Assembly: GCA_021787335.1 (NCBI GenBank) | Contig: JAJYMC010000049.1 | Location: 14,053 to 78,052, forward strand | DNA length: 64,000 nucleotides | Reading direction: 5' to 3' | From: Bacillota bacterium | GTDB taxonomy: Bacteria > Bacillota > Sulfobacillia > JAJYWN01 > JAJZPE01 | Part shown: positions 22,009-46,019 of the stretch, one piece after another | Layout: each line of letters starts with the position of its first letter | Position numbering within the stretch: the first letter of the stretch is position 1 | Notes under the pieces: generated by a model | Seen by the model: the letters and a program-made list of their open reading frames with translations, nothing else | The model's database searches: none | Told to the model about the DNA's origin: nothing | Translations under genes and position numbers: made by a program

Positions 22009-22046
22009 AATAATATGATTTAAGCAAGATGGGAGTTGAAGGTCCC

Positions 22047-22427: not shown

Positions 22428-22431
22428 GAGA

Positions 22432-23476: not shown

Positions 23477-23803
23477 CTAGGCTTGCAACTGTTGCACACG
23501 GATGGTCGCGAGCTCTTGCTTCACGGTGACCAGGACCTTCTGCTTGCGCATGAATTGGCGCAGGCCTTCCACGGACGGGAAGCTTATCGCGTCGAACAGG
23601 CAGGTATTGGCACAGGTGATGCATCCGACCATGCAGGCCTGGGGTTGACTGACCACTGCCTTCTTGAGCCCGAAATCGAACCCGTAGACCTTCTTGCCGC
23701 AGCTGGTGAAGCAGACCCCGCAACCGGTGCACTTCTCGACGTCGATTACTGGATGCCATTCAATGTTTTCTCTGGGAATGCTATGCCATGCGGGGAGAGT
23801 CAT
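23477..23803 (-). CDS. 4Fe-4S dicluster ferredoxin-like protein
   Basis: Two cluster motifs: CTGCGVCFTSC and CMVGCITCANTC. Confidence 0.75.
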   Translation of the reverse strand: MTLPAWHSIPRENIEWHPVIDVEKCTGCGVCFTSCGKKVYGFDFGLKKAVVSQPQACMVGCITCANTCLFDAISFPSVEGLRQFMRKQKVLVTVKQELATIRVQQLQA

Positions 23804-23949
23804 TTTACTTTTCCTCCTGTGTTAGTTGTTGGGCGCTAAAATCAATATATAACTATATACGAATATAGTCAAGACTTAATTGCGGGCGAACCTAACTCTG
23901 GGCAACCGGGCCGGACGAGAACGATCATCAGTATTGGAGGTGAAGGGAC

Positions 23950-24666
23950 ATGAGACTCGTCGTTTTCTCTGATGTTCACGGCAACCTTCCGGCTTTGCGG
24001 GCAGTGCTGGACGACATGAGGCACGAGAGACCCGAATGGGTGGTCTGTGCGGGCGATCTGGTCGGGTACGGCCCGTTTCCGAACGAGGTCATCGAGCTGA
24101 TCCGGGAGGAACGCATCCTGACGGTGACGGGGAATTACGATGACGGCGTTGGCCACGACCGCCCTGACTGCGGGTGCGCTTATCGAACGGAGCGAGCCAG
24201 GGAGAACGGACAGAAGTCGCTCGAATGGACCAAAGCACACACGACGCCCGAGAACAAGGCCTTCCTGAAATCCTTGCCGTTGTCGACCAGCCTATCGTTT
24301 GAAGGCCGGAGGGTTCTTGTCGTCCACGGGAGCCCCCGCCGGATGAATGAGTACCTCTACGAGGACAGGCCCGAGGCGACCATCAAGAGAATCCTGGACG
24401 CCGCCGAGGCCGATGTCCTCATCGTGGGGCACACCCACATTCCGTACCATCGGGTGTTTGGCAATAAGCACCTGGTGAACGTGGGGAGCGTCGGCAAGCC
24501 AAAGCACGGGCGGCCTACAGCGGTGTACGCAGTCCTCAGCCTGGCCGACCGGGTGTCGGTGAGTTTCAATGAGGTGCCGTACGATGTCGAAGCCGCCGCC
24601 CGGGCGGTCGAGGCGGCCGGGCTCCCGGGCGATTTCGCGGACGCTCTCCGGAGCGGCCAGGATTAA
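23950..24666 (+). CDS. Calcineurin-like metallophosphoesterase (YfcE-like)
   Basis: MRLVVFSDVHGN...GDLVGYGP...GNYD...VVHGSP...GHTHIP metallophosphatase motifs. Confidence 0.8.
   Translation: MRLVVFSDVHGNLPALRAVLDDMRHERPEWVVCAGDLVGYGPFPNEVIELIREERILTVTGNYDDGVGHDRPDCGCAYRTERARENGQKSLEWTKAHTTPENKAFLKSLPLSTSLSFEGRRVLVVHGSPRRMNEYLYEDRPEATIKRILDAAEADVLIVGHTHIPYHRVFGNKHLVNVGSVGKPKHGRPTAVYAVLSLADRVSVSFNEVPYDVEAAARAVEAAGLPGDFADALRSGQD
24232..24299 (+). repeat. 68-bp segment of the phosphoesterase gene that is duplicated at 28943-29010
   Basis: aagtcgctcgaatggaccaaagcacacacgacgcc[c/t]gagaacaaggccttcctgaaatcc[t/a]tgccgtt; 2 mismatches. Confidence 0.9.
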
Positions 24667-24709
24667 GTCGCCTTCCCTCGACTCTTTGCGGCAGGGGGGT
24701 CAATTTGGC

Positions 24710-24738
24710 TTGACACAACCTAAGCCATAGGCATAATA
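24710..24738 (+). promoter_or_regulatory. Promoter (TTGACA - 16/17 - CATAAT) for the arsD-like gene cluster
   Basis: Read directly in the AT-rich intergenic region 24667-24793. Confidence 0.5.
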
Positions 24739-24793
24739 TGATGCATAGGCGTATAGCGATTGACGGATATGCTGGACGGATGGCGATGAACCC

Positions 24794-25195
24794 TTGGGGG
24801 CAGTGGGGGAGGTGGCCGAATCGAACGGCAAGGCCATTGAGATCCAGGTCTTTGATTCCGGAATGAAGGGTAATCTCTCGCCGTGTGACGCTCGGCAATC
24901 ACCTGAGGAGAGGACGCGGGCAGTCGCCCGTGCCTTGGCCCGTAAGCACGGGGACAAGGTACGGGTCGCGTTCATCGACCTGTTCTCCGAAAGGGGGCAG
25001 CGGATGGCCGGCGTATGGGAGGAGATCACCCGGCGAAATCTCAGCCTTCCCGTGGTCACGATGGACGGCCGGGTGGTGATGGCGGGCGAGCTGTCCTACG
25101 CCAAGCTCGGCCGGGAGGTGGAGCGGTGGCTGGGGGACGCCCATGGTGCCGTGCTGGGGACAGAGAGAAATCGCGGAAAGGGGGATGCGCAGTGA
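24794..25195 (+). CDS. ArsD-family thioredoxin-fold paralog 1 (single conserved Cys; start uncertain)
   Basis: Core IEIQVFDSG...SPCDARQ...AVARALARKHGD...NLSLPVVTMDGRVVMAGELSYAKL parallels ArsD. The tracked ORF begins with TTG 24794. Confidence 0.5.
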   Translation: MGAVGEVAESNGKAIEIQVFDSGMKGNLSPCDARQSPEERTRAVARALARKHGDKVRVAFIDLFSERGQRMAGVWEEITRRNLSLPVVTMDGRVVMAGELSYAKLGREVERWLGDAHGAVLGTERNRGKGDAQ

Positions 25196-25539
25196 GTCAA
25201 CAGCCCGTCGTCATTCGGGTCTTCGACGCGCCTGGCAAACCCTGCGGGTGAGGATCGAAAGGAGTGACCGCTGGATGCGGTCCAACGATTCAGGACCAGA
25301 CGTCGGCCATCGCCAGGGCGTTGGCGCAGAAGTACGGTGACAACGTGACGGTCGAATATGTCAACCTCGTGTCTCCCCGGGGGGCGAGCTTTCGCGACGC
25401 CTGGGGGGTCATCATGGCTCACAATCTCGCGCTGCCAGTGGTGACGGTCAACAATCGGGTAAGGCTATCCGGCGTCCTTTCCCTCGCCGAACTGGACCGG
25501 GAAGCCGGAAGCCTGCTGAGTCACGGAGGTGCGCAATGA
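25192..25539 (+). CDS. ArsD-family paralog 2 with in-frame TGA at 25249-25251 (candidate selenocysteine protein): VSQQPVVIRVFDAPGKPCG-U-GSKGVTAGCGPTIQDQ...
   Basis: GTG 25192 with AAAGGGGGA RBS overlaps the previous stop (GTGA). The ORF continues in the same frame across a single TGA into the tracked ORF 25264..25539. The UGA lies beside a Cys and upstream of GCGPT, aligning with ArsD's C12-C13/C18 region (MCCPGGLCGPT). Hairpin gaccgc-tggat-gcggtc begins 14 nt after the UGA. Confidence 0.45.
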
Positions 25540-25877
25540 ACGGGGATTCGGCCGCGGCGACGTCGGTGGAAGTCGACCTCTACGACCCACCAATGTGCTG
25601 CCCAGGCGGGCTGTGCGGTCCCACCGTCGACCCGGAACTGCTGAAGATCCACGAGGCTCTCCTGGCGGTCGAAAGAGAGTTCGGCGACCGGGTGGTCGTT
25701 CATCGTCACGTCCTGAGCCAGACGCCCGCCAAGTTCATGGCCAACCCGGACATAGTTGCCATCCTGACATCCGACGGTGTTGACGCCCTGCCGGTGACCG
25801 TGGTGAACGGCAGGATCATCAAGAAGGGTGTTTACCCCAGTCTTGACGAGATCCGGCAAGCGATTGTCTCAGGTTGA
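25536..25877 (+). CDS. arsD: ArsD arsenical metallochaperone/repressor
   Basis: LYDPPMCCPGGLCGPTVDPELL matches the ArsD FDPAMCCSTGVCG Cys triad and fold. Confidence 0.8.
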   Translation: MNGDSAAATSVEVDLYDPPMCCPGGLCGPTVDPELLKIHEALLAVEREFGDRVVVHRHVLSQTPAKFMANPDIVAILTSDGVDALPVTVVNGRIIKKGVYPSLDEIRQAIVSG

Positions 25878-25957
25878 CCGCGGCAAGGCCGCCGGCTAAC
25901 CATTAAGCCCGCAGTTCATTCTGATCGACGTCCGGGTCGTCTATTCGCTGGTAAACG

Positions 25958-26381
25958 GGCCGCCGGGTGGAGGGATATCCTCACCAGCGTTCCCGGGGTG
26001 GGAATGGTGACCGCGGCCGGTTTTCTTGGGGAGATCGGGGATCCCACCGCCTTCTCAGACTGGCGGCAAGTGCAGAAGCTGGCGGAGTTGAACCTGGTCG
26101 AGCAGGGTTCCGGGGAGAAACGGTGGCAGCGTACCATTTCGAAGCGTGGCCGGCCCGGCCTCAGGGCCCTGCTGTATCAGGCGGCGCTGGCCGCCGTCGC
26201 CAAGGATCCGGTGTTCGGCTCATTGTACCGCTACTTCTTAGGTCGAGCCCAGAACCCGTTGCAGAAGAAGCAAGCCCTGATAGCCGTAGCTCTGAAGCTC
26301 TTACGGGTGATGCTCCGGCTCGTCCAGAGCCGCCAGTTCTACGATCCGGTAGGCCGAGGGCGAAGGCTTGGGGACACCTAA
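25958..26381 (+). pseudogene. IS110-family transposase remnant (C-terminal transposase_20 region only)
   Basis: ILTSVPGVGMVTAAGFLGEIGDPTAFSDWRQVQKLAELNLVEQGSG...ISKRGRPGLRALLYQAALAAV matches the IS110 C-terminal domain. The N-terminal DEDD domain is absent. Confidence 0.65.
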
Positions 26382-26452
26382 GACGCAAACCTGCAAGAGA
26401 ATGAGATTCAACGTCTCTAAGCTCAAAAACATGTAGACAGGAGGAACCGCTC

Positions 26453-26638
26453 ATGGAAAAGAAGAACAGCGAAGTGAAATCAGGCAAAAAGGGACTTTGG
26501 GCCATGCTCAAGGAGTCCATGAACAAGGCTAGCAGCGGTTGCGGCCCGGGGTGCGGTTGCCATGTCGAGAATCAAGATAGCGAGAATCAACGGAAGGATG
26601 CGCCGGAGAATCCGGAAAAGGAGAAGGAAGAAGCATGA
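26453..26638 (+). CDS. Small Cys-rich protein (61 aa; SSGCGPGCGCH motif), translationally coupled to the P-type ATPase
   Basis: CAGGAGGA RBS; its stop overlaps the ATPase ATG (ATGA). Lys/Glu-rich tails flank a CxxxCxC cluster. Confidence 0.55.
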   Translation: MEKKNSEVKSGKKGLWAMLKESMNKASSGCGPGCGCHVENQDSENQRKDAPENPEKEKEEA

Positions 26639-28581
26639 TGGTTCGACCCAATGATTCTCGAAACTGGCAACAGATACTGATCTTTGCGCTTGTTCCGGTG
26701 ATAGTGGGCGCATTGACACTGGCCTCTTGGCTCCTGGGCCGCTGGCAGGTCGGGCCTTGGCTTCTCGTTGGCCCCTGGCAGGTCGGTCCGGGAATTCCGG
26801 CTGCGGGACTTGCTCTGGTCGCCACCTTATTTGGCGGATGGCAGCGGTTTTTGGCAGGCTTTCGGGATGTCGCACACCGCAGGATCACGGTCAACGTCTT
26901 TGTGACCGTGGCGATTTTTGTCACCATAGCCGTCGGCGAGTTTTTGCCTGCTGCGGTGATCATTCTGATCATGGCCGTCGTCGGGGCTTTGGAGTCTTAC
27001 ACGCTCGACAGGACGCGCCGGAGTATCCGCAACCTGCTCGATCTCACCCCTCCGATGGCAAACGTGCGACGTGGCGAAGAGGAAGTCCCCGTTTCCGTGG
27101 CCGAGCTTCAGTACGGAGATGTCGTGATCATACGGCCGGGTGAGCGAATCCCGGTGGACGGCGTGGTTATTGCGGGTGCTGCCACCGTCAATCAAGCCCC
27201 CATTACAGGTGAATCCATGCCGGTGGGAAAGCTTAAGGGCCACGAGGTGTTCGCAGGCACCCTAAATGAGGATGGCCGCCTTGAAATTCGAACAATCAAG
27301 ATCGGCGCGGATACCACTCTTGCCAGAATCGTTCACTTGGTCGAGGAAGCGCAGGAGTCCAAAGCGCCCATCCAGGGGGTCGCCGACCGCTTCACCGTGT
27401 GGTTCCTCCCTACAGTCCTCGTCCTTGCGATTGTCGGCTATCTGATTTCGGGTGATGTGAAGGTAGCTGTCGCCATCTTGCTGGTGGCATGTCCATGCGC
27501 CTTCGCCATCGCGACTCCCTCGGCTATGGCCGCCGGAATTGCGAACATGGCCCGACGAGCCGTACTCATCAAGGGTGGTATTTTCTTCGAAATCGCAGGT
27601 AGGATTGACTCCCTGGTCGTTGACAAAACCGGTACCCTCACCCTGGGCCGTCCGAAAGTCCTGGAGGTCATCAGCGGCGATGGCATGCCGAAAGACGAAG
27701 TGCTTAATCTGGCTGCCATCGCTGAAAAGTACTCAGAGCATCCTTTGGCAAAAGCGGTAATGGCTATAGCCAAAGAAAGGGCACTTGAGGTGCCGGACCC
27801 CGATGAGTTTAGAATCGAGGTTGGCAAGGGGATCGTGTCTTCCCACAATGGACAGGAGATCGTGGTTGGGAGGGATGTTTTTCTGAGGGAACAGGGGATC
27901 GTCATTCCTGCTTGGATTGAGCAGGCCGTGACGGACCAATCCGACCTCGGAAGGACGGCGATTTTGGTCGCACGAGACCGCGAAGCCATTGGACTTCTGT
28001 CCATCGCGGACGAAATTAGAGCCGAGACAGTGGGTGCAATTGAATCGTTGAAGTCGCTTGGCGTGGGCAAAACCACCATGTTGACCGGCGATAACTCCAA
28101 AATTGCGCAAGCCGTAGCATCCCAGATCGGCGTGGATGAATTCCGGGCCGAGCTCTTGCCGGAGGATAAGGAGTCTGCCATCAAAGAGATGAAAAACAAA
28201 GGGAAGATCGTCGCCATGGTCGGTGACGGGATCAACGACGCGCCTGCCCTGGCGCTGGCCGATGTCGGCATCGTGATGGGGGGGACCGGCGCAGACGTCG
28301 CCATTGAGGCGGCTGATGTAACACTCATGGACGGCAACCTCTCACGCTTGGTCGAATTCGTGCAGATGTCCCGGAAGGTGCTGCGGCGGATCAAGCTCAA
28401 TATCTTCTTCTCAATAATCTATAACGTTATCGGTCTGACCCTGGCGATGCTTGGACACCTGACGCCCGTTATGGCCGTCATTTTCCAAGAAGCCGGCTGT
28501 GTCACCGTGGTCCTCAGCTCCACGTTGCTGCTCTGGGCCAAGGTCCCGGACCTGAAAAGCTCCGGGGCCAAACTGTCGTAA
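26635..28581 (+). CDS. Heavy-metal-translocating P1B-type ATPase without an N-terminal metal-binding domain
   Basis: TGES, CPC (VACPCAFAIATP), DKTGTLT, GDGINDAP motifs. Starts directly with TM helices and a WQVGP x2 repeat. Metal specificity not assignable from sequence alone. Confidence 0.9.
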   Translation: MMVRPNDSRNWQQILIFALVPVIVGALTLASWLLGRWQVGPWLLVGPWQVGPGIPAAGLALVATLFGGWQRFLAGFRDVAHRRITVNVFVTVAIFVTIAVGEFLPAAVIILIMAVVGALESYTLDRTRRSIRNLLDLTPPMANVRRGEEEVPVSVAELQYGDVVIIRPGERIPVDGVVIAGAATVNQAPITGESMPVGKLKGHEVFAGTLNEDGRLEIRTIKIGADTTLARIVHLVEEAQESKAPIQGVADRFTVWFLPTVLVLAIVGYLISGDVKVAVAILLVACPCAFAIATPSAMAAGIANMARRAVLIKGGIFFEIAGRIDSLVVDKTGTLTLGRPKVLEVISGDGMPKDEVLNLAAIAEKYSEHPLAKAVMAIAKERALEVPDPDEFRIEVGKGIVSSHNGQEIVVGRDVFLREQGIVIPAWIEQAVTDQSDLGRTAILVARDREAIGLLSIADEIRAETVGAIESLKSLGVGKTTMLTGDNSKIAQAVASQIGVDEFRAELLPEDKESAIKEMKNKGKIVAMVGDGINDAPALALADVGIVMGGTGADVAIEAADVTLMDGNLSRLVEFVQMSRKVLRRIKLNIFFSIIYNVIGLTLAMLGHLTPVMAVIFQEAGCVTVVLSSTLLLWAKVPDLKSSGAKLS

Positions 28582-28942
28582 CATCTCCCTTCCTCATCAT
28601 TCAGGCCTCGAGGGAACATATACAAACAAAGGCAAGGTAGGGGAAATGTCCCATTCATGACCATGCCTGCCGTACCAAGACCTTCAAGAACAAGGATGGC
28701 GTCGCCCCGGAAGCCAGGTGGGCCAAGGCGTGGGGCCCGGCGCGGATTTTCCGTCGGCTCTGGAAGGCCCTCGGCCTTCAGGATGTGTTCCAGCGCCTTC
28801 TCTCGGATGCGGCCATCGTCTCGGACCTGGCCGAGGCCGCCTTCGCCATGGTTGAACCGCCTTGTGGACCCCATGTCCAAGCTCGGAGTGAGCGAGTGGA
28901 TGAAGACCGTTCACCGCCCCCGAGTGGGCGCTTGAGTTGCAC

Positions 28943-29010
28943 AAGTCGCTCGAATGGACCAAAGCACACACGACGCCTGAGAACAAGGCCTTCCTGAAAT
29001 CCATGCCGTT
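28943..29010 (+). repeat. Second copy of the 68-bp phosphoesterase-gene fragment (see 24232-24299); supplies the arsA upstream region and RBS
   Basis: Near-identical to 24232-24299; followed by AACAAGGAGGG and arsA ATG 29034. Confidence 0.9.
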
Positions 29011-29033
29011 AACAAGGAGGGAAATGGAAGATA

Positions 29034-30980
29034 ATGTCCGAACTTGACCAGGAACGCGGCGCCGAACGACGAGAGACGCAGTTCATCTTCTTTTCGGGCA
29101 AGGGCGGAGTCGGCAAGACGTCCATGGCCTGCGCGACCGCGGTTCACCTGGCCATGGAAGGCAAGGCCACGCTCATTGTGACCACCGATCCGGCTTCGAA
29201 CCTGGCCGACGTCTTCGGTCAGGAAATCGGCCACCGGGAGGCGCCGATAAGGGGGACCCCTCGACTCTGGGCGATGGAGATTGATCCGGACCGGGCCACC
29301 GAGGAGTACCGGGAACGAATCGTCGGCCCGATGCGCCTGGTGATGCCGTCGGAGATCACGCGGGTGATTGAAGAGCAGTTCCGCTCGCCGTGCACGACGG
29401 AGATCGCCGCCTTCGACCGCTTCGTTGACTTCATGGACGACTCTTCCTACGACATGGTCATCTTTGACACCGCGCCCACGGGACACACGATCAGACTGCT
29501 TGAACTGCCGGTGGACTGGAGCAAACACATTGAGGAGAGCGCTCAGCACGGTGGGCAGACCTGCATGGGGCCGGTGGAGGCGATTCAAGGCTCCAAGGCC
29601 AAGTACGACCGGGCTATTCGCTTCCTGCGGGATCCGGGCCGGACCACCTTCATCTTTGTGATTCAGGCCGAGCAGACGCCCGTTTTCGAGGCCGAAAGGG
29701 CAATGAAAGAACTGGCCACGATCGGTGTCAAGTCGACCTGGCTGATTGTCAATGGGCTCATCCCCCAAGATGCCGCTGATAACCCTCTCTTCGCCAAGCG
29801 CCTGACGATGCAGCAGAGGTACCTGAAGGATATCGCCCGGCGGTTCCCCATGACGACGACGATGATGCCCTTGCTACCCGTGGAAATACGGGGCACCGCC
29901 ATTCTGTCCAAAGTGGGCGACCTGCTGTACCGCAGTCCGGCCGAAACGCCTCCGACGCATGGGCCATGGACCGCCGCGGGGATGGACGGCCACACAGCGC
30001 CGGTCTCCGGCAAGGGAGAGTCGGACCACGCCGGCTCCAGATCTCCGACCGACTGGGCGGGCGTGCGAGCCGCCCTGACCCCCGGCCCCACTGGGCGGAG
30101 GCTGCTGTTTTTCACGGGGAAGGGAGGGGCCGGCAAGACTACCATCGCTTCCGTCACCGCCGTGCGGTTGGCTGAGCTTGGGTATCGGACCCTTCTGGTC
30201 TCGACCGACCCAGCCTCGCACCTCAGCCAGTCTTTCGCCCAGGAGATCGGGGCCGAGGTGACCCCCGTGGTCGGCCAGCCTGGCCTGTATGCCGCTCGGG
30301 TAGACCAGAAGGAAGCGGTGGAGGAATACCGAGAGCGAATTCTCTCTGAAGCCAGAGGGAAGTATTCAGCCGACATGCTCGAGGCGATGCGGGAGGAGTT
30401 GAATTCTCCGTGCACCGAGGAGATGGCCGCCTTCGAGAAGTTCGTCAGGTATACCACTCTGACGGACTACGACGTGACGGTCTTTGACACGGCCCCGACC
30501 GGTCACACCCTGCGCCTTCTCGAATTGCCGATGGAATGGGACAGGCAGGTTGAGATCATGGTCTCAACGAAGCCCGGGACGCAGGCCTTCGCGGAAACGA
30601 AGGCCCGCTTTGACGATGCCATCAAGACCCTGCGCGACCCCGCCGAGACCACCTTTGTCTTCGTGGTCTATCCGGAATACACGCCCATAATTGAAGCCTT
30701 TCGGGCGAGCCAGGATCTCTCCCAGAGCGGCATCAAGACCGGCTTGGTGGTTGCCAATCTCGTCCTTCCCCATGGGCATCGGTCGACCCCGCTGTATGAC
30801 AGCCGGTACGGGCTTCAACAGAAGTATCTGGGCGGAATCCAAGAGAAGTTCGGCGTGCCCATGTTGGTCATGCCGCTCTTGGACGAGGAGATTAACGGGC
30901 TACCTCGGCTCAAGGAGGCGGCCGCGATTCTGTATGGGGAGGAGCTGGGGGATGGCCGCAAAGCCGACGCAGGATCATGA
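29034..30980 (+). CDS. arsA: Arsenical pump-driving ATPase ArsA (two homologous halves)
   Basis: Two P-loops (GKGGVGKTS, GKGGAGKTT), two DTAPTGHT motifs, and conserved metalloid-binding Cys (SPCTTEIA, GQTCMGP, SPCTEEMA). Confidence 0.9.
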   Translation: MSELDQERGAERRETQFIFFSGKGGVGKTSMACATAVHLAMEGKATLIVTTDPASNLADVFGQEIGHREAPIRGTPRLWAMEIDPDRATEEYRERIVGPMRLVMPSEITRVIEEQFRSPCTTEIAAFDRFVDFMDDSSYDMVIFDTAPTGHTIRLLELPVDWSKHIEESAQHGGQTCMGPVEAIQGSKAKYDRAIRFLRDPGRTTFIFVIQAEQTPVFEAERAMKELATIGVKSTWLIVNGLIPQDAADNPLFAKRLTMQQRYLKDIARRFPMTTTMMPLLPVEIRGTAILSKVGDLLYRSPAETPPTHGPWTAAGMDGHTAPVSGKGESDHAGSRSPTDWAGVRAALTPGPTGRRLLFFTGKGGAGKTTIASVTAVRLAELGYRTLLVSTDPASHLSQSFAQEIGAEVTPVVGQPGLYAARVDQKEAVEEYRERILSEARGKYSADMLEAMREELNSPCTEEMAAFEKFVRYTTLTDYDVTVFDTAPTGHTLRLLELPMEWDRQVEIMVSTKPGTQAFAETKARFDDAIKTLRDPAETTFVFVVYPEYTPIIEAFRASQDLSQSGIKTGLVVANLVLPHGHRSTPLYDSRYGLQQKYLGGIQEKFGVPMLVMPLLDEEINGLPRLKEAAAILYGEELGDGRKADAGS

Positions 30981-30996
30981 TTTCAGAGGTCGGAAG

Positions 30997-31416
30997 ATGA
31001 GTGATGCGCTTGGACTTCAGGGTCGATTGTCCGTCAAACCGCGGGAGGCTGGTGACCAACGTATGGAAGCCCTTTTGGAGCAGATCAAGGCCATGTCCGA
31101 CGGGACCCGGCTCAAGATCCTCAAGCTGGTCGAGCGGCAGGAGCTCTGTGTCTGCCAGATCGTTCCCATCATGGGGCTTTCACAACCCACCATCTCCACC
31201 CATCTCGGCAAGCTGAAACGGGCTGGACTGGTCAAGGAACGACGTCGGGGTCAGTGGGCCTATTACTCGATGAACCGTGAGAGCTTGGCTCAGTTCGGCA
31301 AAGCATTGGAAGCATTCTTTTCGGCTCAGCTTGAGGAGATCCCGGAGATGCGGGCGAATGCTCTCCGGCTGGCCGAAGAGCTCGCGAAAGGGGACCCGTG
31401 CCCAAAGGACCCCTGA
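30997..31416 (+). CDS. arsR: ArsR-family arsenic-responsive repressor (CVC motif)
   Basis: [31 protein letters not shown]. Start ATG 30997 or 31063; the tracked ORF is extended upstream artificially. Confidence 0.75.
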
Positions 31417-31481
31417 ATCGGGGCCCCTTAAGGCCGTGTTTCCGGCTGCGCCAAGAACCTGACAGACCAAAGGAATGGAGG

Positions 31482-32558
31482 GCCTCGCAATTGAATAACG
31501 GGAAGACCACCGCGGCCAAGCTGTCGCTGCTTGATCAACTCCTGACCGTCTGGATTCTCCTCGCCATGGCCCTGGGGGTGGGCCTCGGCTACCTCTTTCC
31601 GGGGGTGGCGGCGCTCCTTGACCGGCTATCCGTCGGTACGACTTCCATCCCCATCGCCGTCGGCCTGATCGTCATGATGTACCCACCCCTGACCAAGGTC
31701 CGGTACCGTGAACTGGGGAAGGTCTTCAAGAACGGCAAGGTTCTCACCCTTTCGTTGGTCCAGAACTGGCTCATCGGGCCGGTGTTGATGTTCCTCCTGG
31801 CCATCATCTTCCTCCGCGGGTATCCCGAGTACATGGTCGGCCTCATCCTCATCGGGCTGGCCCGCTGCATCGCCATGGTCATCGTTTGGAACAGCCTGGC
31901 CAGGGGGGACACCGAGTACGCGGCCGCCCTGGTCGCTTTCAACTCGCTGTTCCAGGTCTTCTTCTATTCGGTCTATGCTTACGTCTTCATAGCGGTCCTC
32001 CCCGCGTGGATGGGCCTCAAGGGCGCCGTGGTCCACGTGACCATCGGACAGGTGGCCGAGAGCGTGGCGATTTATCTGGGAATCCCGTTCCTGGCCGGCT
32101 TCTTGACCCGGACCATCCTGGCTCCGCTCAAGGGCGAGGAGTGGTACGAGAAGCGCTTCGTTCCCAAGGTCAGCCCCCTGGCCCTGATCGCCCTGCTGTT
32201 CACGATCATCGTCATGTTCTCGCTGAAAGGGCGGTACATCGTCGGGCTTCCACTGGACGTGGTCCGGATCGCCGTCCCCCTCATCATCTACTTCGTGGTC
32301 ATGTTCATGGTCTCGTTCTTCCTGAGCCACCGGTTCGGGGTGGATTACCCGAAGACGGCGAGCCTGTCTTTCACGGCGGCCAGCAATAACTTCGAGCTGG
32401 CCATCGCCGTGGCCGTGGCGGTCTTCGGTCTGAACTCCGGCCAGGCCTTCGCCGCGGTCATCGGCCCGCTCATCGAGGTCCCGGTGATGCTGGCTTTGGT
32501 CAATGTATCCCTGGGCTTTTCCAGGCGATACTTCCGAACCCAGGGAGGCAACGGATGA
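31482..32558 (+). CDS. acr3: ACR3-family arsenite efflux transporter
   Basis: [33 protein letters not shown] and a 10-TM profile typical of Acr3. Likely TTG start 31482 after GGAGGG RBS. Confidence 0.85.
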
Positions 32559-32568
32559 ACCGGCCGAC

Positions 32569-32602
32569 GGCCCCCGCGCTGGACCGCGGGGGCCGTTTTC
32601 CG
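32569..32602 (+). terminator. Rho-independent terminator after acr3
   Basis: ggcccccgcg-ctggac-cgcgggggcc + gttttcc. Confidence 0.7.
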
Positions 32603-32801
32603 CTATCCCGAGACCGGGGCGGTGGTTGAGGGGGTTCGCGAAGGCTGGCTGATGGTCGTCCCGCCCTGGGCGGCGTGGTGACAAGCCTGGGGCCATACAA
32701 GCTCTTGGCCACCGCCTTTGCCGCTAGAGGCTGAACTCAATTGGGGTAAGGGTTGTTGCCCCAGACGGCCATACGCCGGTCGGTCACAGCCCAAGAGTCT
32801 A

Positions 32802-32830
32802 TTGACACCACTATATTAGGATATTAGAAT
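32802..32830 (+). promoter_or_regulatory. Promoter (TTGACA - 17 - TAGAAT) for the second ArsR-family gene; the spacer contains a TATTAG direct repeat
   Basis: Read directly. Confidence 0.55.
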
Positions 32831-32848
32831 AAAGGCGAGGCGAGGTGT

Positions 32849-33115
32849 TTGACTTTGAACGAACGTTTCTTGTCCCTGGAAGCTAGGCTGACCAAGGCGA
32901 TGGGTCACGCGACCAGGCTAAAGATTCTTCACCTCATCGCTGAAAACGGGCCGCGGTGTGTCTGCGAACTGGTTCCGGTGTTGCGCGTGGACCAATCCAA
33001 CGTGTCCCAGCACCTGTCGGTGCTGCGGCAGGCCGGGGTCGTGGTGGCGCGACGGGATGGCGCCCGGGTCGTCTATTCGCTGGCAAACCCGAGGACGTCC
33101 GCGACGAACATTTGA
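32849..33115 (+). CDS. ArsR-family regulator (CVC metal-binding motif)
   Basis: GPRCVCELVPVLRVDQSNVSQHLSVLRQAGVV. Start TTG 32849/32855 or ATG 32900. Confidence 0.7.
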   Translation: MTLNERFLSLEARLTKAMGHATRLKILHLIAENGPRCVCELVPVLRVDQSNVSQHLSVLRQAGVVVARRDGARVVYSLANPRTSATNI

Positions 33116-39919: not shown

Positions 39920-41866
39920 ATGTCCATCCTGACCATCAACAATGTCAGCAAATACTACGGGGCCCAGCGAGTCCTCGATAACGTCAGCTTCGCCATCGCC
40001 CGTGGCGAGCGGGTCGGCCTGGTCGGCCGGAACGGGGTGGGGAAGACCACCCTCCTGCGCCTGATCATGGGCCAGGAGGAGCCGGACGGCGGCCAGATCA
40101 CCCTGGCCCACGGCACGCGCCTCGGCTATCTCGAACAGGAGGCCACCTTTGACCCCGAGCGGTCGCTGGCGGCCGAGGTCGGGCGGGTCTTCGACCCGCT
40201 CCGAGCCAAGGAGGCCGAGCTGCGTGCGGCCGAGGCGGAGATGGCCAGCCCCGAGGTGACCGCCGATCCGGCCCGCCTGGAGAAGGTCATGGCCCGCTAC
40301 ACGCGGCTGACCCACGAGTTCGAGGCGGCCGGCGGCTACGATTACGAGGCCGAGGTCAAGGCGACCCTGGGCGGCCTGGGCTTCGCGCCCGACGAAGGCG
40401 CCCTGCCCATGAAGGCCCTCTCGGGCGGCCAGAAGACCCGGGCCTTCCTGGCCCGCATGCTCCTGGGCCGGCCCGACGTGATGCTCCTCGACGAGCCCAC
40501 CAACCACCTGGACATCCAGGCGGCCGAGTGGCTCGAGGAGTACCTGGCCGACTTCCCGGGGTGCATCCTCATCGTCTCCCACGACCGCTATTTCCTGGAC
40601 GCCGTGGCCCAGAAGATAATCGAACTCGATGACAGCGGCGCCCGCCTTTACAGCGGCAACTTCAGTTCGTACGTGACCCAGCGTGAGGAGCGGCGGCGCC
40701 GCCAGGCCGAGGAGTTCCGGCGGCAGCAGGAAGAGATCTCCGACCTCAAAGCCTACATCCGTAAGTACAAGGCTGGCAACCGCGCGACCATGGCCAAGAG
40801 CCGCGAGAAGTGGCTGGCCCGCATCGAACCGGTGGGGCGGCCACGCACCCCGGTCTCCTTCAGGCTTCACTTCAGCGCCGGAGAGGCCGGCGGCCGCGAG
40901 GTCCTCCGTCTGCGCGGGCTGGCCAAGGCCTACCCGGGCCGCGAGCTCTTCCACGACGTCGAGGCCACGGTGATGCGCGGCGACCGGGTCTGCCTCATCG
41001 GCAAGAACGGTTGCGGCAAGACCACCCTCCTGAAGATCGCCCTCGGCCTGGTCGAGCCGGACCTGGGCAAGGCCACCTTCGGGGGCGGGGTCGAGGTCGG
41101 CTACTTCTCCCAGGACATCGACGACCTCAACGACGAGAAGACCATCCTCGACGAGATCATGGACGCCAGCGGCATGCTGCCCGCCGAAGCCCGCAACTAC
41201 CTGGGCCGCTTCCTCTTCCGCGGGGACGACGTGAACAAGGTCGTCGGGACCCTCAGCGGGGGTGAGCGAAGCCGCCTCTATCTGGCCAAGCTGGTCATGG
41301 GCGAGGCCAACACGCTGCTCCTCGACGAGCCCACCAACCACCTGGACCTGGAATCCAAGGAGGCCCTCGAAGAGGCCCTCAAGGACTACGGGGGGACGGT
41401 CATCGTCGTCAGCCACGACCGCTATTTCATCGACCGGTTGGCCACCCGCGTCTTCGAGTTCGCGAACGGCCGGATCCATCAGTACCGCGGCAACTACTCG
41501 GCCTACCGGATGGAGAAGATCAGGCAGGCTCAGGCGACGCTGGGCGGGGCGGCCCAGGCGGCGGCCCCGGGCAGGTCGGCCCCAGGGAAGTCGGCCCGGG
41601 CCGGTGCTGCCGCGCCCGGCTCCCGGAATCGGGCCCCGGCCCGCGGCGGCGCGAACAGAAGCCGCGACCGCCAGGAGAAGGACCTCGAACTGGCCATCCT
41701 GGCCCTGGAGAAAGAAAAGGAGTCGCTGGAGAAGGCCATCAGCGCCCCGGACTTCTATCGCCGGGACGGCGCCCAGGTCCGCGAGACCATGCACCGCTAT
41801 GAACAGCTCATGGTCGAGCTGGACGAGGCCTACCGGCGGTGGAGCGAGTTAGCGGGGGGCGAGTAG
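39920..41866 (+). CDS. ABC-F family ATPase (Uup/EttA-like, two ABC domains, C-terminal coiled-coil extension)
   Basis: Two Walker A/B + signature sets, no TM domain. Ala/Arg-rich linker, then a charged coiled-coil C-terminus. Confidence 0.9.
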   Translation: MSILTINNVSKYYGAQRVLDNVSFAIARGERVGLVGRNGVGKTTLLRLIMGQEEPDGGQITLAHGTRLGYLEQEATFDPERSLAAEVGRVFDPLRAKEAELRAAEAEMASPEVTADPARLEKVMARYTRLTHEFEAAGGYDYEAEVKATLGGLGFAPDEGALPMKALSGGQKTRAFLARMLLGRPDVMLLDEPTNHLDIQAAEWLEEYLADFPGCILIVSHDRYFLDAVAQKIIELDDSGARLYSGNFSSYVTQREERRRRQAEEFRRQQEEISDLKAYIRKYKAGNRATMAKSREKWLARIEPVGRPRTPVSFRLHFSAGEAGGREVLRLRGLAKAYPGRELFHDVEATVMRGDRVCLIGKNGCGKTTLLKIALGLVEPDLGKATFGGGVEVGYFSQDIDDLNDEKTILDEIMDASGMLPAEARNYLGRFLFRGDDVNKVVGTLSGGERSRLYLAKLVMGEANTLLLDEPTNHLDLESKEALEEALKDYGGTVIVVSHDRYFIDRLATRVFEFANGRIHQYRGNYSAYRMEKIRQAQATLGGAAQAAAPGRSAPGKSARAGAAAPGSRNRAPARGGANRSRDRQEKDLELAILALEKEKESLEKAISAPDFYRRDGAQVRETMHRYEQLMVELDEAYRRWSELAGGE

Positions 41867-41895
41867 GAGGCCTTGGAATTAAGTGCGCTAGTCAA

Positions 41896-41930
41896 CCCAG
41901 CACCCACATGGGGCTGGGCTTTTCTTTGCC
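41896..41930 (+). terminator. Terminator after the ABC-F gene, at the left edge of the low-GC island
   Basis: cccagc...gctggg hairpin + cttttctttgcc. Confidence 0.55.
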
Positions 41931-42043
41931 TTCCCAGTCAACATGCCTTGTAGACTGCCGGAGCATCTTATGGGGAGGGGAGGATTCCTACCCTTGGATG
42001 CTGAAAGGAAACCGGGACAGGTTGGAGGTGGATACGCACATCC

Positions 42044-45000
42044 ATGGCGACTACGTTCGCGTCCGTCACATCTGAGCTAATTGAGGCTCTGAATGACGAA
42101 ATCCGTGCCATCAAAGAAAAGGGTGGCACGGAACAGGTGGGACTACATGATGGTGAGGCGAGAGGGTCCCTTGCCGGGCGGGTTCTGTATACTTTCCTTG
42201 CCGACTCTGAGCTCAACCTGCCTTCTGACACTCCGGGGCAGCTAAAGGTCGGAAACTCGGTCTATGACGTTGAGGTTGTGAGCATAGCAGGCTTTGAGAT
42301 CACGGTGGCGGTCACCGAAGACCTTGGCTCCCGAATACCCAATGCGGCGCTGCTCTTATCCCCGTATTACCTTCTTGAAATGCTCAAAACACGTCTCGCA
42401 GAGGTCAAAGAGGGTAGAATCACGACGGATCGAGTAATGCCCTTGAGGCTCTTCGGATACGTGGGCAATGAGCCGCTAAACGGGGCAGTTGTCTCCGACA
42501 GGTGCGGCGACCTAAACCTAGTGCAGAGGCAGGCTGTGGCTAAGTGCTTAGCCCAAAGGGTTACATTCGTCTGGGGACCACCTGGAACGGGAAAGACCAG
42601 GACCATTGGAGCTCTGTCCCGCGAGCTGGTAGGGCTCGGGGAGAGGATGCTAGTAACGTCCCACACGAACGTGGCGGTTGACACGGCTCTTCTTAAGGTT
42701 ATTGATGCCATGACCGAAAGTCAGATCCTAGAAGGCACCGTTGTCCGCATAGGCCAGCCCGCCCTCGGAGATCCCCGCCTACAAGCCGTCACATTGGAGG
42801 TGGTCTCAGACCGTAAGAGTGAGCCACTTAGGCAAGAGAGGGCCCGCGTCGTGGCTCAACGCGAGCCTCTCCTGGGAGAACGGCGGGACCTTGAAGCGAA
42901 GGCGCGGTGGGTGGAAGGAATCCAGGAGCAGGTAGATGAGATTGAGAAGCTCAAAGCACAAGTCGAGGAATCGTCCAGAGCAATAGGGGAGCTCGACTCA
43001 GACGTCCAGTCAGTTGAATCTATCATAGGGGACCTGGAGGAGCGATTGACGGCCGCCGAGGCCGCTAGCTTCATCAAGAGGCTCCTTAACGGTCTATACC
43101 CGGAGCGTATCCGGAGGACGATAGAGGTTAGGCGCAGTCAGCTTGCCGACACCAAGGCGAGGAGAGCTAAGGCGGAATCGGCAAAGGTGCAGATGCTCGT
43201 CAATCTCGAGGTGGCGAACCAGAGACTCCTGCAGTTGAATGCTCATAGACCCTCAAATGGCCCGATATCACCTCTCGCTGAACTAAGGAATCAGATTGGA
43301 CGCCTTAATGAGAGCATCGGAGAACTAGACAGGCAGGTCGCAGGGATTGACAAACAGATAGCTGAAATCGTCCTGACGGTGATCCGGGAAGCCAAAGCGA
43401 TAGGAGCGACGCTCTATAGGCTAGTGCTACTGGAGGACCTCTACAAGTCGCTCTACGATACTGTAGTCGTCGACGAAGCGAGTGCAGTACCCCTCCCTAA
43501 CCTTTGGTTCGCAAGCGCTCTTGCCACCAAGCGAGTTGTTGTCACTGGGGACTTCAGGCAGTTAGGGACAATAGTGACGGCGGATGACCCCTCCGCCTAC
43601 CCTAATGCCTCCAAATGGCTGATTCCTGACGTCTTCCAGCAAGCCGGTATAGTCAGAGACGCCACGGTGGAGATCAAGGATACACGTCTTTCAGTCCTAA
43701 GGCAGCAGTATAGGATGCACCCAGACATCGGGGAGTTGGCTAACCTCCTAGTCTATCGTGCCGACGGCAATCCTCTCGACCATGTGGCCAGACCCGAAGA
43801 CTATGAATCCGCTACCCAATCCGACCCGGAGCCGGGGGCCCCCTTGGTGCTCTGCGATGTTTCTGAAGTCAACCCGTGGTGTGCTCGATTGTCACCGGGC
43901 TACAGTAGGTACAACATATATACCGCCTTGGTTGCGACCAAGTTAGCCGAAAAGGCGCTTCTAGGAGGGGCAGACCAAGTGGGCCTAGCGGCCCCCTACC
44001 GAGCCCAAGTGAAACTCCTTCAACGGCTAGTTGAGGAGCAAGGACTCGACCGGCATCGCATCGAGGTTGCTACCGTTCACAGGTTTCAGGGTAACGAGAG
44101 AAGCGTAATGATTTTCGACCTCGTTGATAGTCCCCCGTTTGACATAGGGAAACTGCTTAAGGGCGGTAGGGGTTCGGGGGCGATGAGGCTTCTCAACGTG
44201 GCTTGCACAAGGGCCAAGGGGAAGCTTGTCCTCGTGGCCCACTACGGTCACCTTACGGAGAAGCTGCCGGGGGAGGCTTCCCTGCGTACCACCCTGGAGT
44301 ACGTCAGTCGTAAGGGGCGCATTGTCGAAGGGTCTGGCGCATTACGCGACTACGGAGACCCTGCGGTCCCTCGGGCGATAAAGCTGGCCAAGCAGATGCC
44401 AGATGCGACCCTGGCAGGAATGGCCCACTACAACGAGTCGACATTCTACCCAGCTTTCCAGACAGACCTTATAAACGCGCAGAAGCAAGTCGTGCTCTTC
44501 AGCCCATTCATTTGGGAGCAACGCCTAGCGGATCTCATGCCTACGATACGGCATGTCCTTGACAGAGGTGTTGAAGTAATCCTACTAACCAGACAGCTTA
44601 AGAACTCGACCCTCTCGTCTCAGCTATCCGAAATAGGCGTTAGAGTCATCTGGAGGAGCGAACTACACGAGAAGTTGGCCTTCATAGACGGCAGGATAGC
44701 TTGGTTTGGTAGCCTCAATATCCTGTCGCAGAGCAAGTCCACTGAGCAGATGCTCCGCTTCTCTCAACAGGGAATCGTATCACACCTTCTTGAGGTATCG
44801 GGAGTCGTAGCTCTCATCTCGAGAGAGGACAGGAAAGCCCAGCAGCAAGCCAGGTTAACGGCGCTCGCGGCGGCCATATCGAGGCACATGGAGACTCCGA
44901 GATGTCCCGAGTGCGGCGCAAAGACGGAACTGCGAACCAGTAAGTACGGCCCATTCTTCGGGTGCATCAACTTCGGGACTACCGAGTGCAAAGGCATAGT

Positions 45001-45154
45001 CAACGTTCCGCAGAAGGCCCTAGAGTTAGCTGTGGAAGACCTCAAGCTGGAGTGCCCCCATCATGGCAGAACAGTGGTACTGAAGCGGGGAAGAAACGGA
45101 CTTTTCTTGGGATGCAACAGATACCCCGACTGCAAGTGGACGAGTAACCTCTAG
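42044..45154 (+). CDS. SF1 (Upf1/DNA2-like) helicase fused to a PLD-family (HKD) nuclease domain and two C-terminal topoisomerase-type C4 zinc ribbons. Candidate defence protein (Mokosh type II-like).
   Basis: Walker A GPPGTGKT (about 42575), Ia LVTSHTNVAVD, coiled-coil insert, II VVVDEASAV, III VTGDFRQLGTIV, IV LRQQYRMHPDIG, V VHRFQGNERSVMIFDLV, VI LLNVACTRAKG. HKD motif HEKLAFIDGRIAWFGSLN (about 44666). Zn ribbons CPECG...GCINFGTTEC and CPHHG...GCNRYPDC. The gene is markedly AT-richer than its flanks, with rare codons AGA/ATA/TTA. Confidence 0.85.
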   Translation: MATTFASVTSELIEALNDEIRAIKEKGGTEQVGLHDGEARGSLAGRVLYTFLADSELNLPSDTPGQLKVGNSVYDVEVVSIAGFEITVAVTEDLGSRIPNAALLLSPYYLLEMLKTRLAEVKEGRITTDRVMPLRLFGYVGNEPLNGAVVSDRCGDLNLVQRQAVAKCLAQRVTFVWGPPGTGKTRTIGALSRELVGLGERMLVTSHTNVAVDTALLKVIDAMTESQILEGTVVRIGQPALGDPRLQAVTLEVVSDRKSEPLRQERARVVAQREPLLGERRDLEAKARWVEGIQEQVDEIEKLKAQVEESSRAIGELDSDVQSVESIIGDLEERLTAAEAASFIKRLLNGLYPERIRRTIEVRRSQLADTKARRAKAESAKVQMLVNLEVANQRLLQLNAHRPSNGPISPLAELRNQIGRLNESIGELDRQVAGIDKQIAEIVLTVIREAKAIGATLYRLVLLEDLYKSLYDTVVVDEASAVPLPNLWFASALATKRVVVTGDFRQLGTIVTADDPSAYPNASKWLIPDVFQQAGIVRDATVEIKDTRLSVLRQQYRMHPDIGELANLLVYRADGNPLDHVARPEDYESATQSDPEPGAPLVLCDVSEVNPWCARLSPGYSRYNIYTALVATKLAEKALLGGADQVGLAAPYRAQVKLLQRLVEEQGLDRHRIEVATVHRFQGNERSVMIFDLVDSPPFDIGKLLKGGRGSGAMRLLNVACTRAKGKLVLVAHYGHLTEKLPGEASLRTTLEYVSRKGRIVEGSGALRDYGDPAVPRAIKLAKQMPDATLAGMAHYNESTFYPAFQTDLINAQKQVVLFSPFIWEQRLADLMPTIRHVLDRGVEVILLTRQLKNSTLSSQLSEIGVRVIWRSELHEKLAFIDGRIAWFGSLNILSQSKSTEQMLRFSQQGIVSHLLEVSGVVALISREDRKAQQQARLTALAAAISRHMETPRCPECGAKTELRTSKYGPFFGCINFGTTECKGIVNVPQKALELAVEDLKLECPHHGRTVVLKRGRNGLFLGCNRYPDCKWTSNL

Positions 45155-45326
45155 TTCCCTTTGCTTAGAAACGGACCGCGGCACCGGTGTGCCCCGCCGG
45201 CGCCTTCTTCGTTTCACCTGAAGGAATCCCGGCCGGTCCCGGGGAATCGAAGGATGGCCCGGTGGCGCCTGGCCCCCGGGGCCTGGCCAGACTGGTCCCA
45301 GACATGCCTCAGGAGGTGCCCTTCTC

Positions 45327-46019
45327 TTGCTGACCACGGACGACCTGCAGGTCTTCACGGACCACGTCAGACGGACGATGTTCGAGTGCGCCGTCACCCT
45401 GGACCGGCCCCAGGCGGCTGAGTTCTGGCCGCTCTCGACGCCGGAGTATCGCTTCCAGCACACCCTTCACGTCAGGCGGTTCGTCGAGCGCCTTCAGGCC
45501 GAGGAGGGCGGCGACCTGGAACTGCTCCAGACGTCGGCTATCTTCCACGACATCTCCCATTTCAGCACGACCTACGACCAGCACGGACGGGTCTCGGCCG
45601 AGATGGCCCGGGACTACCTGACCTCCCACCGCAGCTCCACGGGGGAGCCGTTCCCGGCGGACTTCATCGACCGGGTCTTCCTGACCATCGACGACCACGC
45701 CTCGGACAAGCCGTCCAGCTACTACCTTGACGAGGTCCCCCTCGAGTCGATGCTCCTCATCGAGGCCGACCTCCTCGACAAGCTGGGGCCGAACGGGGCC
45801 TTCGCCCATCTGCTCCTATCCGGCGCCAACCACCGCCTCTGGCAGGCCGCCCTGGCGACCATCGAAAGGGACGTCATCGGGCGCGGCGAGCGGGCACTGG
45901 GGAACGACGGTAAGCGGTTCCACCTGACCCCGGTCGCGCGGCGGATGATCGAGGAACGCCTGGCCTGGACCAAGCATTTCCTGGCCGAGGTCCGGGAGGA
46001 CGTCGCCTGCTTGTTCTAG
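45327..46019 (+). CDS. HD-domain phosphohydrolase
   Basis: H...HD (IFHDISHF) ... D motif pattern. TTG start after CAGGAGGTG. Confidence 0.7.
   Translation: MLTTDDLQVFTDHVRRTMFECAVTLDRPQAAEFWPLSTPEYRFQHTLHVRRFVERLQAEEGGDLELLQTSAIFHDISHFSTTYDQHGRVSAEMARDYLTSHRSSTGEPFPADFIDRVFLTIDDHASDKPSSYYLDEVPLESMLLIEADLLDKLGPNGAFAHLLLSGANHRLWQAALATIERDVIGRGERALGNDGKRFHLTPVARRMIEERLAWTKHFLAEVREDVACLF

Follow-up and report, generated by a model that had tools for sequence, protein, structure and literature searches.

The window analysed here, a stretch of 64,000 nucleotides from an uncultured high-GC (guanine plus cytosine) Bacillota bacterium, carries a foreign-looking gene set between housekeeping genes. 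The coding sequence, on the plus strand at 42044–45154, specifies a protein of 1036 amino acids (aa) and 116 kDa in which a Upf1-like helicase is fused to a phospholipase D (PLD) nuclease and two zinc ribbons of the topoisomerase I (TopA) type. This architecture was determined from the open reading frame (ORF), Pfam, PADLOC, and an AlphaFold2 (AF2) model. On balance, the gene is probably a horizontally acquired, stand-alone Mokosh-type nuclease-helicase, a distant and unnamed sister of MkoC/YjhR, and its most likely role would be defence against phages or invading DNA. The defence role is proposed from the sequence and by analogy with known systems.

Domain architecture of the helicase-nuclease protein

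All Pfam domains of the protein exceeded their gathering cut-offs. AAA_11 covered residues 157–511 (96 bits), AAA_12 residues 546–733 (93 bits), and PLDc_2 residues 810–915 (31 bits), and Zn_ribbon_Top1 (PF01396) matched two stretches with 58 bits compared to a gathering score of 32. The helicase motifs were located at residues 178–185 (I), 206–213 (Ia), 477–480 (II), 502–507 (III), 678–685 (V), and 718–725 (VI). The AF2 model was confident, with a mean pLDDT (predicted local distance difference test) score of 89.2. When it was compared to the PDB using Foldseek, the matches were SETX (3e-29), IGHMBP2 (6e-29), Upf1 (2e-26), and Dna2 (3e-26), each aligned over about 800 columns, and also Sen1, Aquarius, ZNFX1, and nsp13. 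With two RecA domains, motifs I–VI, a stalk and 1B barrel, and an insert at the 1C position, the predicted structure is that of a Upf1-like superfamily 1B (SF1B) helicase.

In the AF2 model, residues 1–150 (42044–42493, plus strand, as are all parts of the gene) form an N-terminal helix, a seven-strand beta-barrel, and a further helix. This region is modelled as the stalk and 1B barrel of Upf1-like helicases and not as a separate N-terminal domain; its invariant family positions are A15, E19, G37, Y49, F51, and P64. The Walker A sequence of motif I, GPPGTGKT (residues 178–185; 42575–42598), contains the lysine K184 and was invariant in 55 family members. About 200 aa of RecA1, between motifs Ia and II, are modelled as a long helical hairpin (residues 251–449; 42794–43390), a coiled-coil arm with helices at 251–340, 353–400, and 411–449 and pLDDT mostly above 85. 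The arm occupies the position of Upf1 domain 1C and is about 13 nm long. Motif II (DEAS, residues 477–480), motif III (GDFRQL), and RecA2 with motifs V and VI were assigned to residues 477–760 (43472–44323) by Pfam and by the motifs themselves. The family invariants of the helicase include D477, E478, Q506, R557, H679, Q682, G683, and R723.

The single-HKD PLD nuclease domain covers residues 795–920 (44426–44803) and was detected with PLDc_2 and with the PADLOC models MkoB and MkoC. Its HKD motif, HEKLAFIDGRIAWFGSLN (residues 875–892; nucleotides 44666–44719), fits HxKxxxxDxxxxxxGSxN perfectly, and H875, K877, D882, G889, S890, and N892 are kept in at least 90% of the family. A long helix lies between the PLD domain and the zinc ribbons in the AF2 model. 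When the C-terminal module was modelled alone (pLDDT 88.5), its best Foldseek match was mouse Zucchini/PLD6 (4GGK, 5e-8), with a root-mean-square deviation of 2.4 Å over 120 columns. Further matches were Salmonella Nuc (1BYR, 8e-8), H. pylori NucT (6EHI), and fly Zucchini, then PLD3/4, and SauUSI (7CLG) appeared at rank 50. Single-HKD PLD enzymes of the Nuc/Zucchini type cleave nucleic acid as dimers. The domain has the motif and the modelled fold of these nucleases, and an active site formed by a dimer is predicted.

Zinc ribbon 1 covers residues 953–987 (44900–45004), with ligands C954, C957, C974, and C982, and is a Zn_ribbon_Top1 domain of the TopA C-terminal type. Zinc ribbon 2, also matched by Zn_ribbon_Top1, covers residues 1003–1036 (45050–45151), with ligands C1004, H1007, C1024, and C1030. 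In the window clade, ribbon 2 has the form C-x2-H...C-x5-C (C3H), compared to the family consensus CxxC (C4). The ribbons matched the C-terminal domains of E. coli topoisomerase I (4RUL) with a phmmer E-value of 7.6e-6, and these topoisomerase domains bind single-stranded DNA (ssDNA). The Walker A, DE, Q, R, and HKD residues and the zinc ligands were invariant or nearly so in the 55 diverse members. Judged by these residues, the ATP-binding site and the PLD active site appear intact.

These results agree with most of an earlier sequence-only reading of the window. The 1036-aa ORF was present exactly as that reading had claimed. The complete SF1B Upf1/DNA2-like helicase with K184 as the Walker A lysine, the coiled-coil insert between motifs Ia and II, and the single HKD motif were likewise recovered by Pfam, motif assignment, Foldseek, and AF2. 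The reading had also described two C4 ribbons of the topoisomerase I type; the type was right for both and the C4 ligand set for ribbon 1, but ribbon 2 is C3H.

Relation to Mokosh systems

Both types of Mokosh, I and II, conferred defence on E. coli in the work of Millman et al., and neither the ATP site nor the PLD site was dispensable. A parallel between Mokosh and the piRNA machinery (MOV10L1/Zucchini) has been drawn by Cury et al. In a 2025 preprint, EcMokosh II (about 132 kDa) is reported to be monomeric in solution and to have protected, in the panel used, only against an ssDNA phage.

The PADLOC matches of the window protein were MkoA (3.8e-53; 179 bits, profile positions 611–1099), MkoC (3.8e-32; 109 bits), and MkoB (2.5e-8). 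Other family members behaved like the window protein and fitted MkoA at 179–215 bits. For MkoC, the best stretch was confined to profile positions 858–1105 of 1136, or about 22% of the profile. As positive controls, two full-length YjhR-type proteins of 1162 and 1172 aa from Arsenophonus and Vibrio plasmids (L096 and L097) were scored on the PADLOC MkoC model (PDLC03924), and they reached 1387 and 1414 bits over positions 1–1135. Furthermore, hhalign against canonical MkoC gave a probability of 99.8% and an E-value of 9e-28, with residues 470–908 aligned to MkoC 687–1137. The sequence alignment indicates that the helicase-PLD fusion is homologous in the window protein and canonical MkoC, with collinearity that starts at motif II, spans RecA2 and the linker, and extends to the HKD motif.

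As in Mokosh type II, a Upf1-like SF1 helicase is followed by one HKD PLD domain in one polypeptide, and the gene stands alone with no fixed partner. BLASTP between YjhR-type proteins and the window protein gave 25% identity (E about 1e-10). However, canonical MkoC (1160–1170 aa) is longer by about 260 residues ahead of Walker A, and its RecA1 insert, of about 390 residues, is a different one. It also stops about 30 residues past the HKD motif and therefore lacks zinc ribbons, whereas the window protein, about 130 aa shorter, ends with two TopA-type ribbons. The earlier assignment to Mokosh type II is thus sound for the architecture and for the collinear homology of the fusion, but not for membership in the modelled MkoC family, given the 109-bit score and the better fit to MkoA.

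Mokosh type I is resembled in that the helicase core fits MkoA best and the PLD domain matches MkoB; in one relative (L018), the PLD is a separate downstream gene, as in type I. Type I differs from the window protein in having a serine/threonine kinase domain, a long N-terminal region, and a separate nuclease, whereas the nuclease of the window protein is fused. No kinase domain was found in the window protein by Pfam, which places it outside the definition of type I. Membership in Nhi, Hhe, Hna, or Gabija was rejected on marginal or missing PADLOC matches.

Two further observations concern these comparisons. A type II Mokosh remnant, E. coli yjhR, could be detected in 1730 of the 5426 complete genomes; those copies that were examined, in K-12 and two other E. 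coli genomes (L093 5016–6032, L094, L095), were all fragments truncated or interrupted by insertion sequences (IS). The window protein also matched NF040671, the NCBIfam 'PLuB system helicase-like protein', at 122 bits compared to a cut-off of 999. Literature searches on the exact architecture and on the PLuB system returned nothing relevant.

Comparison with other helicase-nuclease systems

CoCoNuT CnuH of type III-C resembles the window protein in its Upf1-like SF1 helicase, OB/stalk region, predicted coiled coils, PLD fusion, and predicted defence role. CnuH is almost always encoded with the McrB/McrC-like proteins CnuB and CnuC. No McrBC-like genes flank the window gene or occur in the sampled family loci. 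CoCoNuT type III-C also has two PLD domains and a winged helix-turn-helix domain, whereas the window protein has one PLD domain and zinc ribbons.

The likeness to MOV10L1 and Zucchini/PLD6 is at the domain level only, in the pairing of a Upf1-like helicase with a single-HKD PLD nuclease. The two eukaryotic proteins are separate, anchored to the mitochondrial membrane, and act on RNA, whereas the window protein is fused and has ribbons of the ssDNA type. SauUSI likewise combines a PLD nuclease, a motor driven by nucleoside triphosphate, and a nucleic-acid-binding module in one chain, and its PLD domain needs pairing. It differs in its SF2 motor, its domain order, and its SRA-like reader of modified cytosine.

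Boundaries and composition of the insert

The low-GC inserted segment was delimited by blastn against an empty site in a related lineage (L090) and by the GC profile. It extends over about 3.3 kb at about 41864–45180 (no strand assigned) and contains one gene. L090 has about 26 bp where the window carries the insert. Homology to L090 stops at 41863 and resumes at 45181, so the insert begins immediately after the stop codon of the ABC-F gene. The sequence-only reading had placed a low-GC, one-gene island at 41896–45200; the island was real, but its edges were moved by the empty site.

GC in the window profile was 0.54–0.59 over about 41750–45250, compared to 0.65–0.73 in the flanks, which agrees with the drop and return described earlier. 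The helicase gene had a GC of 0.559 and a third-position GC (GC3) of 0.632, compared to 0.68 and 0.92 in the flanks; the GC3 of nine neighbouring genes was 0.83–0.95. Its third-position AT was 0.369, compared to 0.076 in native genes. The codons AGA, AGG, ATA, and TTA, pointed out beforehand as enriched, were all over-represented, by 6- to 30-fold. Per 1000 codons, the gene had 16.4 AGA, 27.0 AGG, 20.3 ATA, and 6.8 TTA, compared to 1.3, 4.7, 1.6, and 0.2 in native genes.

Two hairpins were located around the gene. The upstream one, CCCAGC...GCTGGG followed by the T-run CTTTTCTTT (41896–41927, plus strand; fold −17.3 kcal/mol, z −2.0), is common to the window and L002, a lineage that carries a homologue at the same spot, and is absent from the empty sites of L090 and L092. 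The downstream one, with a T-rich tail (about 45180–45214, plus strand; −25.2 kcal/mol, z −3.3), aligns with a GC-rich hairpin directly 3' of the ABC-F stop codon in L090, and the terminator scan also picked 45189–45203 within it. The ancestral ABC-F terminator has been displaced to a position downstream of the helicase gene. Because the upstream hairpin is shared with L002 and the ancestral one now lies downstream, the hairpin that the sequence-only reading took for the native ABC-F terminator belongs to the incoming DNA. Its probable role is to stop transcription from ABC-F and insulate the newly arrived gene.

A possible ribosome-binding site, GGAGGTG (42024–42030, plus strand), was found by eye and is kept in L002. 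It ends about 13–15 nucleotides 5' of the ATG, which is a rather long spacing. The promoter scan found no sigma-70-like site upstream of the helicase gene.

Both flanks are native, as had been proposed. The ABC-F ATPase gene on the left (39920–41866, plus strand; GC3 0.92) and the HD-domain gene on the right (45327–46019, plus strand; GC3 0.93) were identified by Pfam, lie outside the insert, and adjoin each other in the empty-site lineage L090. The HD-domain protein had no PADLOC match. The flanking genes are housekeeping genes, with pheS, pheT, and ABC-F upstream and HD, zapA, polX, a metalloenzyme gene, mutS2, and a GNAT gene downstream. Spore genes, the order of the genes, and the names given to close homologues point to a high-GC member of the Bacillota. 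No tRNA was present within the window, and no integrase or transposase was found among the neighbouring genes. The sequence bracketing 41864 and 45180 contained no att sites, target-site duplications, or terminal or direct repeats, only short chance matches.

Related lineages and selection

Relatives of the window clade were traced via PolX orthologues. The closest relative, L090 (flank synonymous divergence, dS, 0.15–0.30), has the order pheS-pheT-abcF-HD-zapA-polX without the helicase gene, and L092 (abcF-zapA-polX) and L091 likewise lack it. In contrast, L002 and L004 carry a homologue at the same spot, with 83% and 67% protein identity; these are the two closest homologues. The flank proteins of L002 and L004 are 85–98% and 80–87% identical to those of the window. 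The gene was therefore present in three of six related lineages, at 42044–45154 in the window, 7562–10672 in L002, and 260–3370 in L004. The earlier reading had asked whether the same gene, with matching GC, would occur in all relatives; the gene was shared at this position by only these three, and it has a low GC (about 0.56; GC3 about 0.63) in all of them.

The compositional break and the empty sites in L090, L091, and L092 support horizontal acquisition of the insert, as had been claimed. A strain-specific insert was rejected because two other lineages hold the gene at the same spot.

Compared to the L002 allele, the gene had a dS of 0.94 and a ratio of nonsynonymous to synonymous divergence (dN/dS) of 0.10, whereas most flank genes had a dS of 0.34–0.39. 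Synonymous sites were saturated against the L004 allele. The low dN/dS, together with the synonymous divergence among alleles at a shared site, indicates a functional gene that has long resided in the clade under purifying selection. GC3 was about 0.63, compared to about 0.92 in native genes, in all three lineages despite near or full synonymous saturation; amelioration was absent.

The space between the helicase gene and zapA is variable. The window has the native HD gene, L002 has a degraded HD gene and a second low-GC gene, and L004 has nothing. The helicase gene is accessory cargo at this variable ABC-F/zapA spot, kept by purifying selection.

Several side observations were made at these loci. 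The second low-GC gene of L002 (11930–14122; GC3 0.59) encodes a 730-aa protein with no Pfam or PADLOC match. Visual inspection of its C-terminus showed a CxxC...CxxC ribbon and a D...E-x-K motif resembling PD-(D/E)xK, and the protein may be another defence-type nuclease. The HD gene of L002 (10836–11544) is split into short ORFs with continuous DNA homology and is likely a pseudogene; it is intact in the window and L090. Several independent contigs (L004 1–260 and the starts of L006 and L007) break 175–260 bp 5' of the 67% allele. The breakpoints lie next to where a minus-strand ORF (MGKEATPIVLTDAERKTLEAWLRAGSTERRMVERAR) begins, and by eye this ORF resembles the N-terminus of an IS630-type transposase. 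In L005 (1894–8399), the helicase-zapA block occurs twice, as an inverted pair, and a palindromic artefact of assembly is the probable cause.

Distribution and neighbourhoods of the family

The module of PLD plus two zinc ribbons matched 786 50%-identity cluster representatives, among 1.84 billion, at E ≤ 1e-10. It was mostly C-terminal, in proteins of about 1020–1260 aa. A word-indexed search yielded over 100 homologues that were full-length and had the Pfam set of the window protein; their sources were Bacillota, Ignavibacteriales, Chloroflexota, Armatimonadota, Atribacterota, and Thermoanaerobaculia. Species-representative genomes, among the matches listed, added Planctomycetota, Hydrogenedentota, Frankiaceae, Nanopelagicales, and Roseburia, and full-length copies were found on two cyanobacterial plasmids. 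The homologues were named only in the manner of 'AAA domain-containing protein', and no NCBIfam model reached its cut-off on the window protein. The sequence-only reading could match the ribbon pair to no described family; the family is indeed unnamed, but the large number of cluster representatives shows that the combination is no oddity. The GC of the family gene minus that of its host ranged from −0.12 to +0.09.

Among about 15 family loci, no conserved partner gene was found. Defence or mobile-element neighbours were present at about six of them, which is suggestive. One copy lies near a type III-A CRISPR-Cas system and a UvrD/PD-(D/E)xK gene. Another, inside a conjugative element, has Shedu, HipA, and conjugation genes as neighbours. 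The other neighbourhoods contain IS elements with a DpnII-type enzyme, GmrSD, a type IIG/DrmMI-like enzyme, and, immediately upstream of the family gene, type I restriction-modification (R-M) genes, hsdM-S-R, together with an HNH gene. The rest of the sampled loci look ordinary.

In the metagenome-assembled genome of a Nanopelagicales member, just downstream of a family gene and a block of type I R-M and HNH genes, L039 (12589–13218) encodes a protein in which a signal peptide precedes a near-canonical ubiquitin sequence (MQIFVKTLTGKTITLEVE...). In L008 (69–13147), a distant member with 32% identity lies about 2.4 kb from thrS-infC-rpmI-rplT-pheS-pheT-zapB-zapA. This echo of the window's pheST/zapA surroundings may be coincidence or a recurrent hotspot.

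The C-terminus is modular within the helicase lineage (L018, L019, L021, L023–L025, L030, L056, L061). Variants have the PLD domain only (Nocardiopsis, Streptomyces), the PLD as a separate downstream gene (L018), a zinc-ribbon region with no PLD match (L030), or neither PLD nor coiled-coil insert (Bacillus type). Effector swapping is typical of conflict systems.

A second lower-GC stretch of the window, at 22000–33000 (GC 0.56–0.62), was considered as defence-island context and rejected. It encodes a P-type ATPase (26635–28581), ArsA (29034–30980), an ACR3/SBF-type transporter (31398–32558), and ArsR-type regulators, and looks like an acquired metal/arsenic resistance cluster.

Proposed mechanism and alternative explanations

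For a Mokosh-type defence protein of this architecture, the following mechanism is proposed. The two TopA-type ribbons would hold ssDNA, which could be the genome of an ssDNA phage or a replication, rolling-circle, or transfer intermediate. With ATP, the Upf1-like SF1B motor would move 5' to 3' on the bound strand, a polarity taken from its family. As in Nuc and Zucchini, a single-HKD PLD domain would need to pair with a second copy to complete its active site, so cutting would await the meeting or dimerisation of two molecules on the substrate, possibly through the coiled-coil arm of about 13 nm. Metal-independent cleavage of the foreign nucleic acid would then stop the invader. A protein that is monomeric in solution and, in the panel used, protects only against an ssDNA phage, as reported for EcMokosh II, is compatible with this dimerisation-activated ssDNA picture, with the limit that EcMokosh II represents the canonical family and not that of the window.

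Several points weigh against this reading. The family's defence function is proposed by analogy, and the ssDNA or RNA substrate and the dimerisation are putative, deduced solely from which domains are present. Both RNA and DNA are acted on by Upf1-like motors. On the full-length MkoC model, the protein scored 109 bits compared to about 1400 for the controls. The window locus itself has housekeeping and repair genes in place of defence neighbours, and the distant member L008 also lies near thrS-pheST-zapA. Defence or mobile-element neighbours at only about six of 15 independent loci is a raw count with no background rate alongside. No family member was found in phage records or IMG/VR viral contigs, where helicase matches were at the Walker A level only; such an absence neither helps nor harms the case for defence, although a frequent source of support falls away.

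A wider proposal, which is plausible but held more tentatively, is that the family constitutes a distinct and widespread third Mokosh form missed by current models. This form would combine an MkoA-like core with the long coiled-coil arm, a fused PLD domain, and two TopA-type ribbons that bind ssDNA. Through these ribbons, the system would be redirected from RNA to ssDNA intermediates, namely those of ssDNA phages, rolling-circle replicons, and conjugative transfer strands, and the ABC-F/zapA spot would be a small defence hotspot that swaps cargo by recombination in its flanks.

We consider it unlikely that the same defence role is directed at RNA, the target first put forward for Mokosh, with phage transcripts or RNA-DNA hybrids threaded by the helicase and RNA cut by the PLD domain. 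In favour of this reading, the core is closest to the RNA helicases IGHMBP2, Upf1, and SETX/Sen1, and the best structural match of the PLD domain is Zucchini/PLD6, a single-stranded RNA nuclease; the piRNA parallel of Cury et al. points in the same direction. However, the DNA enzyme Dna2 matches the core nearly as well, and Nuc and NucT, both DNA nucleases, are no poorer matches of the PLD domain than Zucchini. The added ribbons are of the TopA C-terminal type, of which the solved example (4RUL) is bound to ssDNA, and in one panel EcMokosh II reportedly gave protection against an ssDNA phage only. Little probability is given to an ATP-dependent, type IV-like restriction of double-stranded DNA (dsDNA), possibly modified, by an analogue of SauUSI acting as a PLD-mediated dimer. 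Such an enzyme would also unite nuclease, motor, and DNA-binding modules in one polypeptide; 7CLG is among the structural matches of the PLD module, albeit at rank 50, and several family loci adjoin R-M and type IV systems. The motor, however, is an SF1B Upf1-like single-strand translocase and not an SF2 dsDNA translocase, Pfam found no SRA, EVE, YTH, or similar reader, and the ribbons are generic ssDNA binders.

An accessory helicase-nuclease of DNA repair or replication restart, processing ends or flaps like Dna2 and partnering PolX and MutS2, also appears improbable. The pheST-...-zapA-polX-mutS2 neighbourhood in three lineages, the distant member near thrS-pheST-zapBA, the strong structural match to Dna2, and the purifying selection on the gene would fit this role. 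Yet L090, L091, and L092 keep polX and mutS2 without the helicase gene, and in other phyla the gene does not co-occur with polX or mutS2. Its composition is foreign, no NCBIfam housekeeping family was matched, and its phyletic distribution is patchy, with unrelated contexts that include plasmids and a conjugative element. These mobile contexts, the copies beside IS elements, and the IS-like ORF that by eye adjoins the L004 allele would suit a selfish or element-serving gene, such as one for exclusion or addiction of a plasmid or integrative conjugative element, stranded in the chromosome with no benefit against phage. This is very improbable: the window clade has no mobility genes, antitoxin-like partner, or repeats, and the gene has remained intact at one chromosomal spot through substantial divergence with a dN/dS of 0.10.

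Implications

The helicase-PLD kind of defence system was already known, and its zinc-ribbon form is a large, unnamed, and apparently uncatalogued Mokosh-like family. The locus is a clean natural one-gene insertion with a known empty site, its own terminator, and a host terminator displaced downstream. The 116-kDa protein is compact and may be thermostable if the source organism is a thermophile. The ssDNA-type ribbons provide a testable handle on the question of whether the motor and PLD domain of Mokosh act on RNA or ssDNA, and, from the single-HKD design, dimerisation induced by the substrate would be expected to license cutting. If this Mokosh-like family does defend its hosts, several hundred clusters have probably gone uncounted as defence genes, as judged from the partial MkoC match, in Bacillota, Chloroflexota, Planctomycetota, Actinomycetota, Atribacterota, cyanobacterial plasmids, and other groups.

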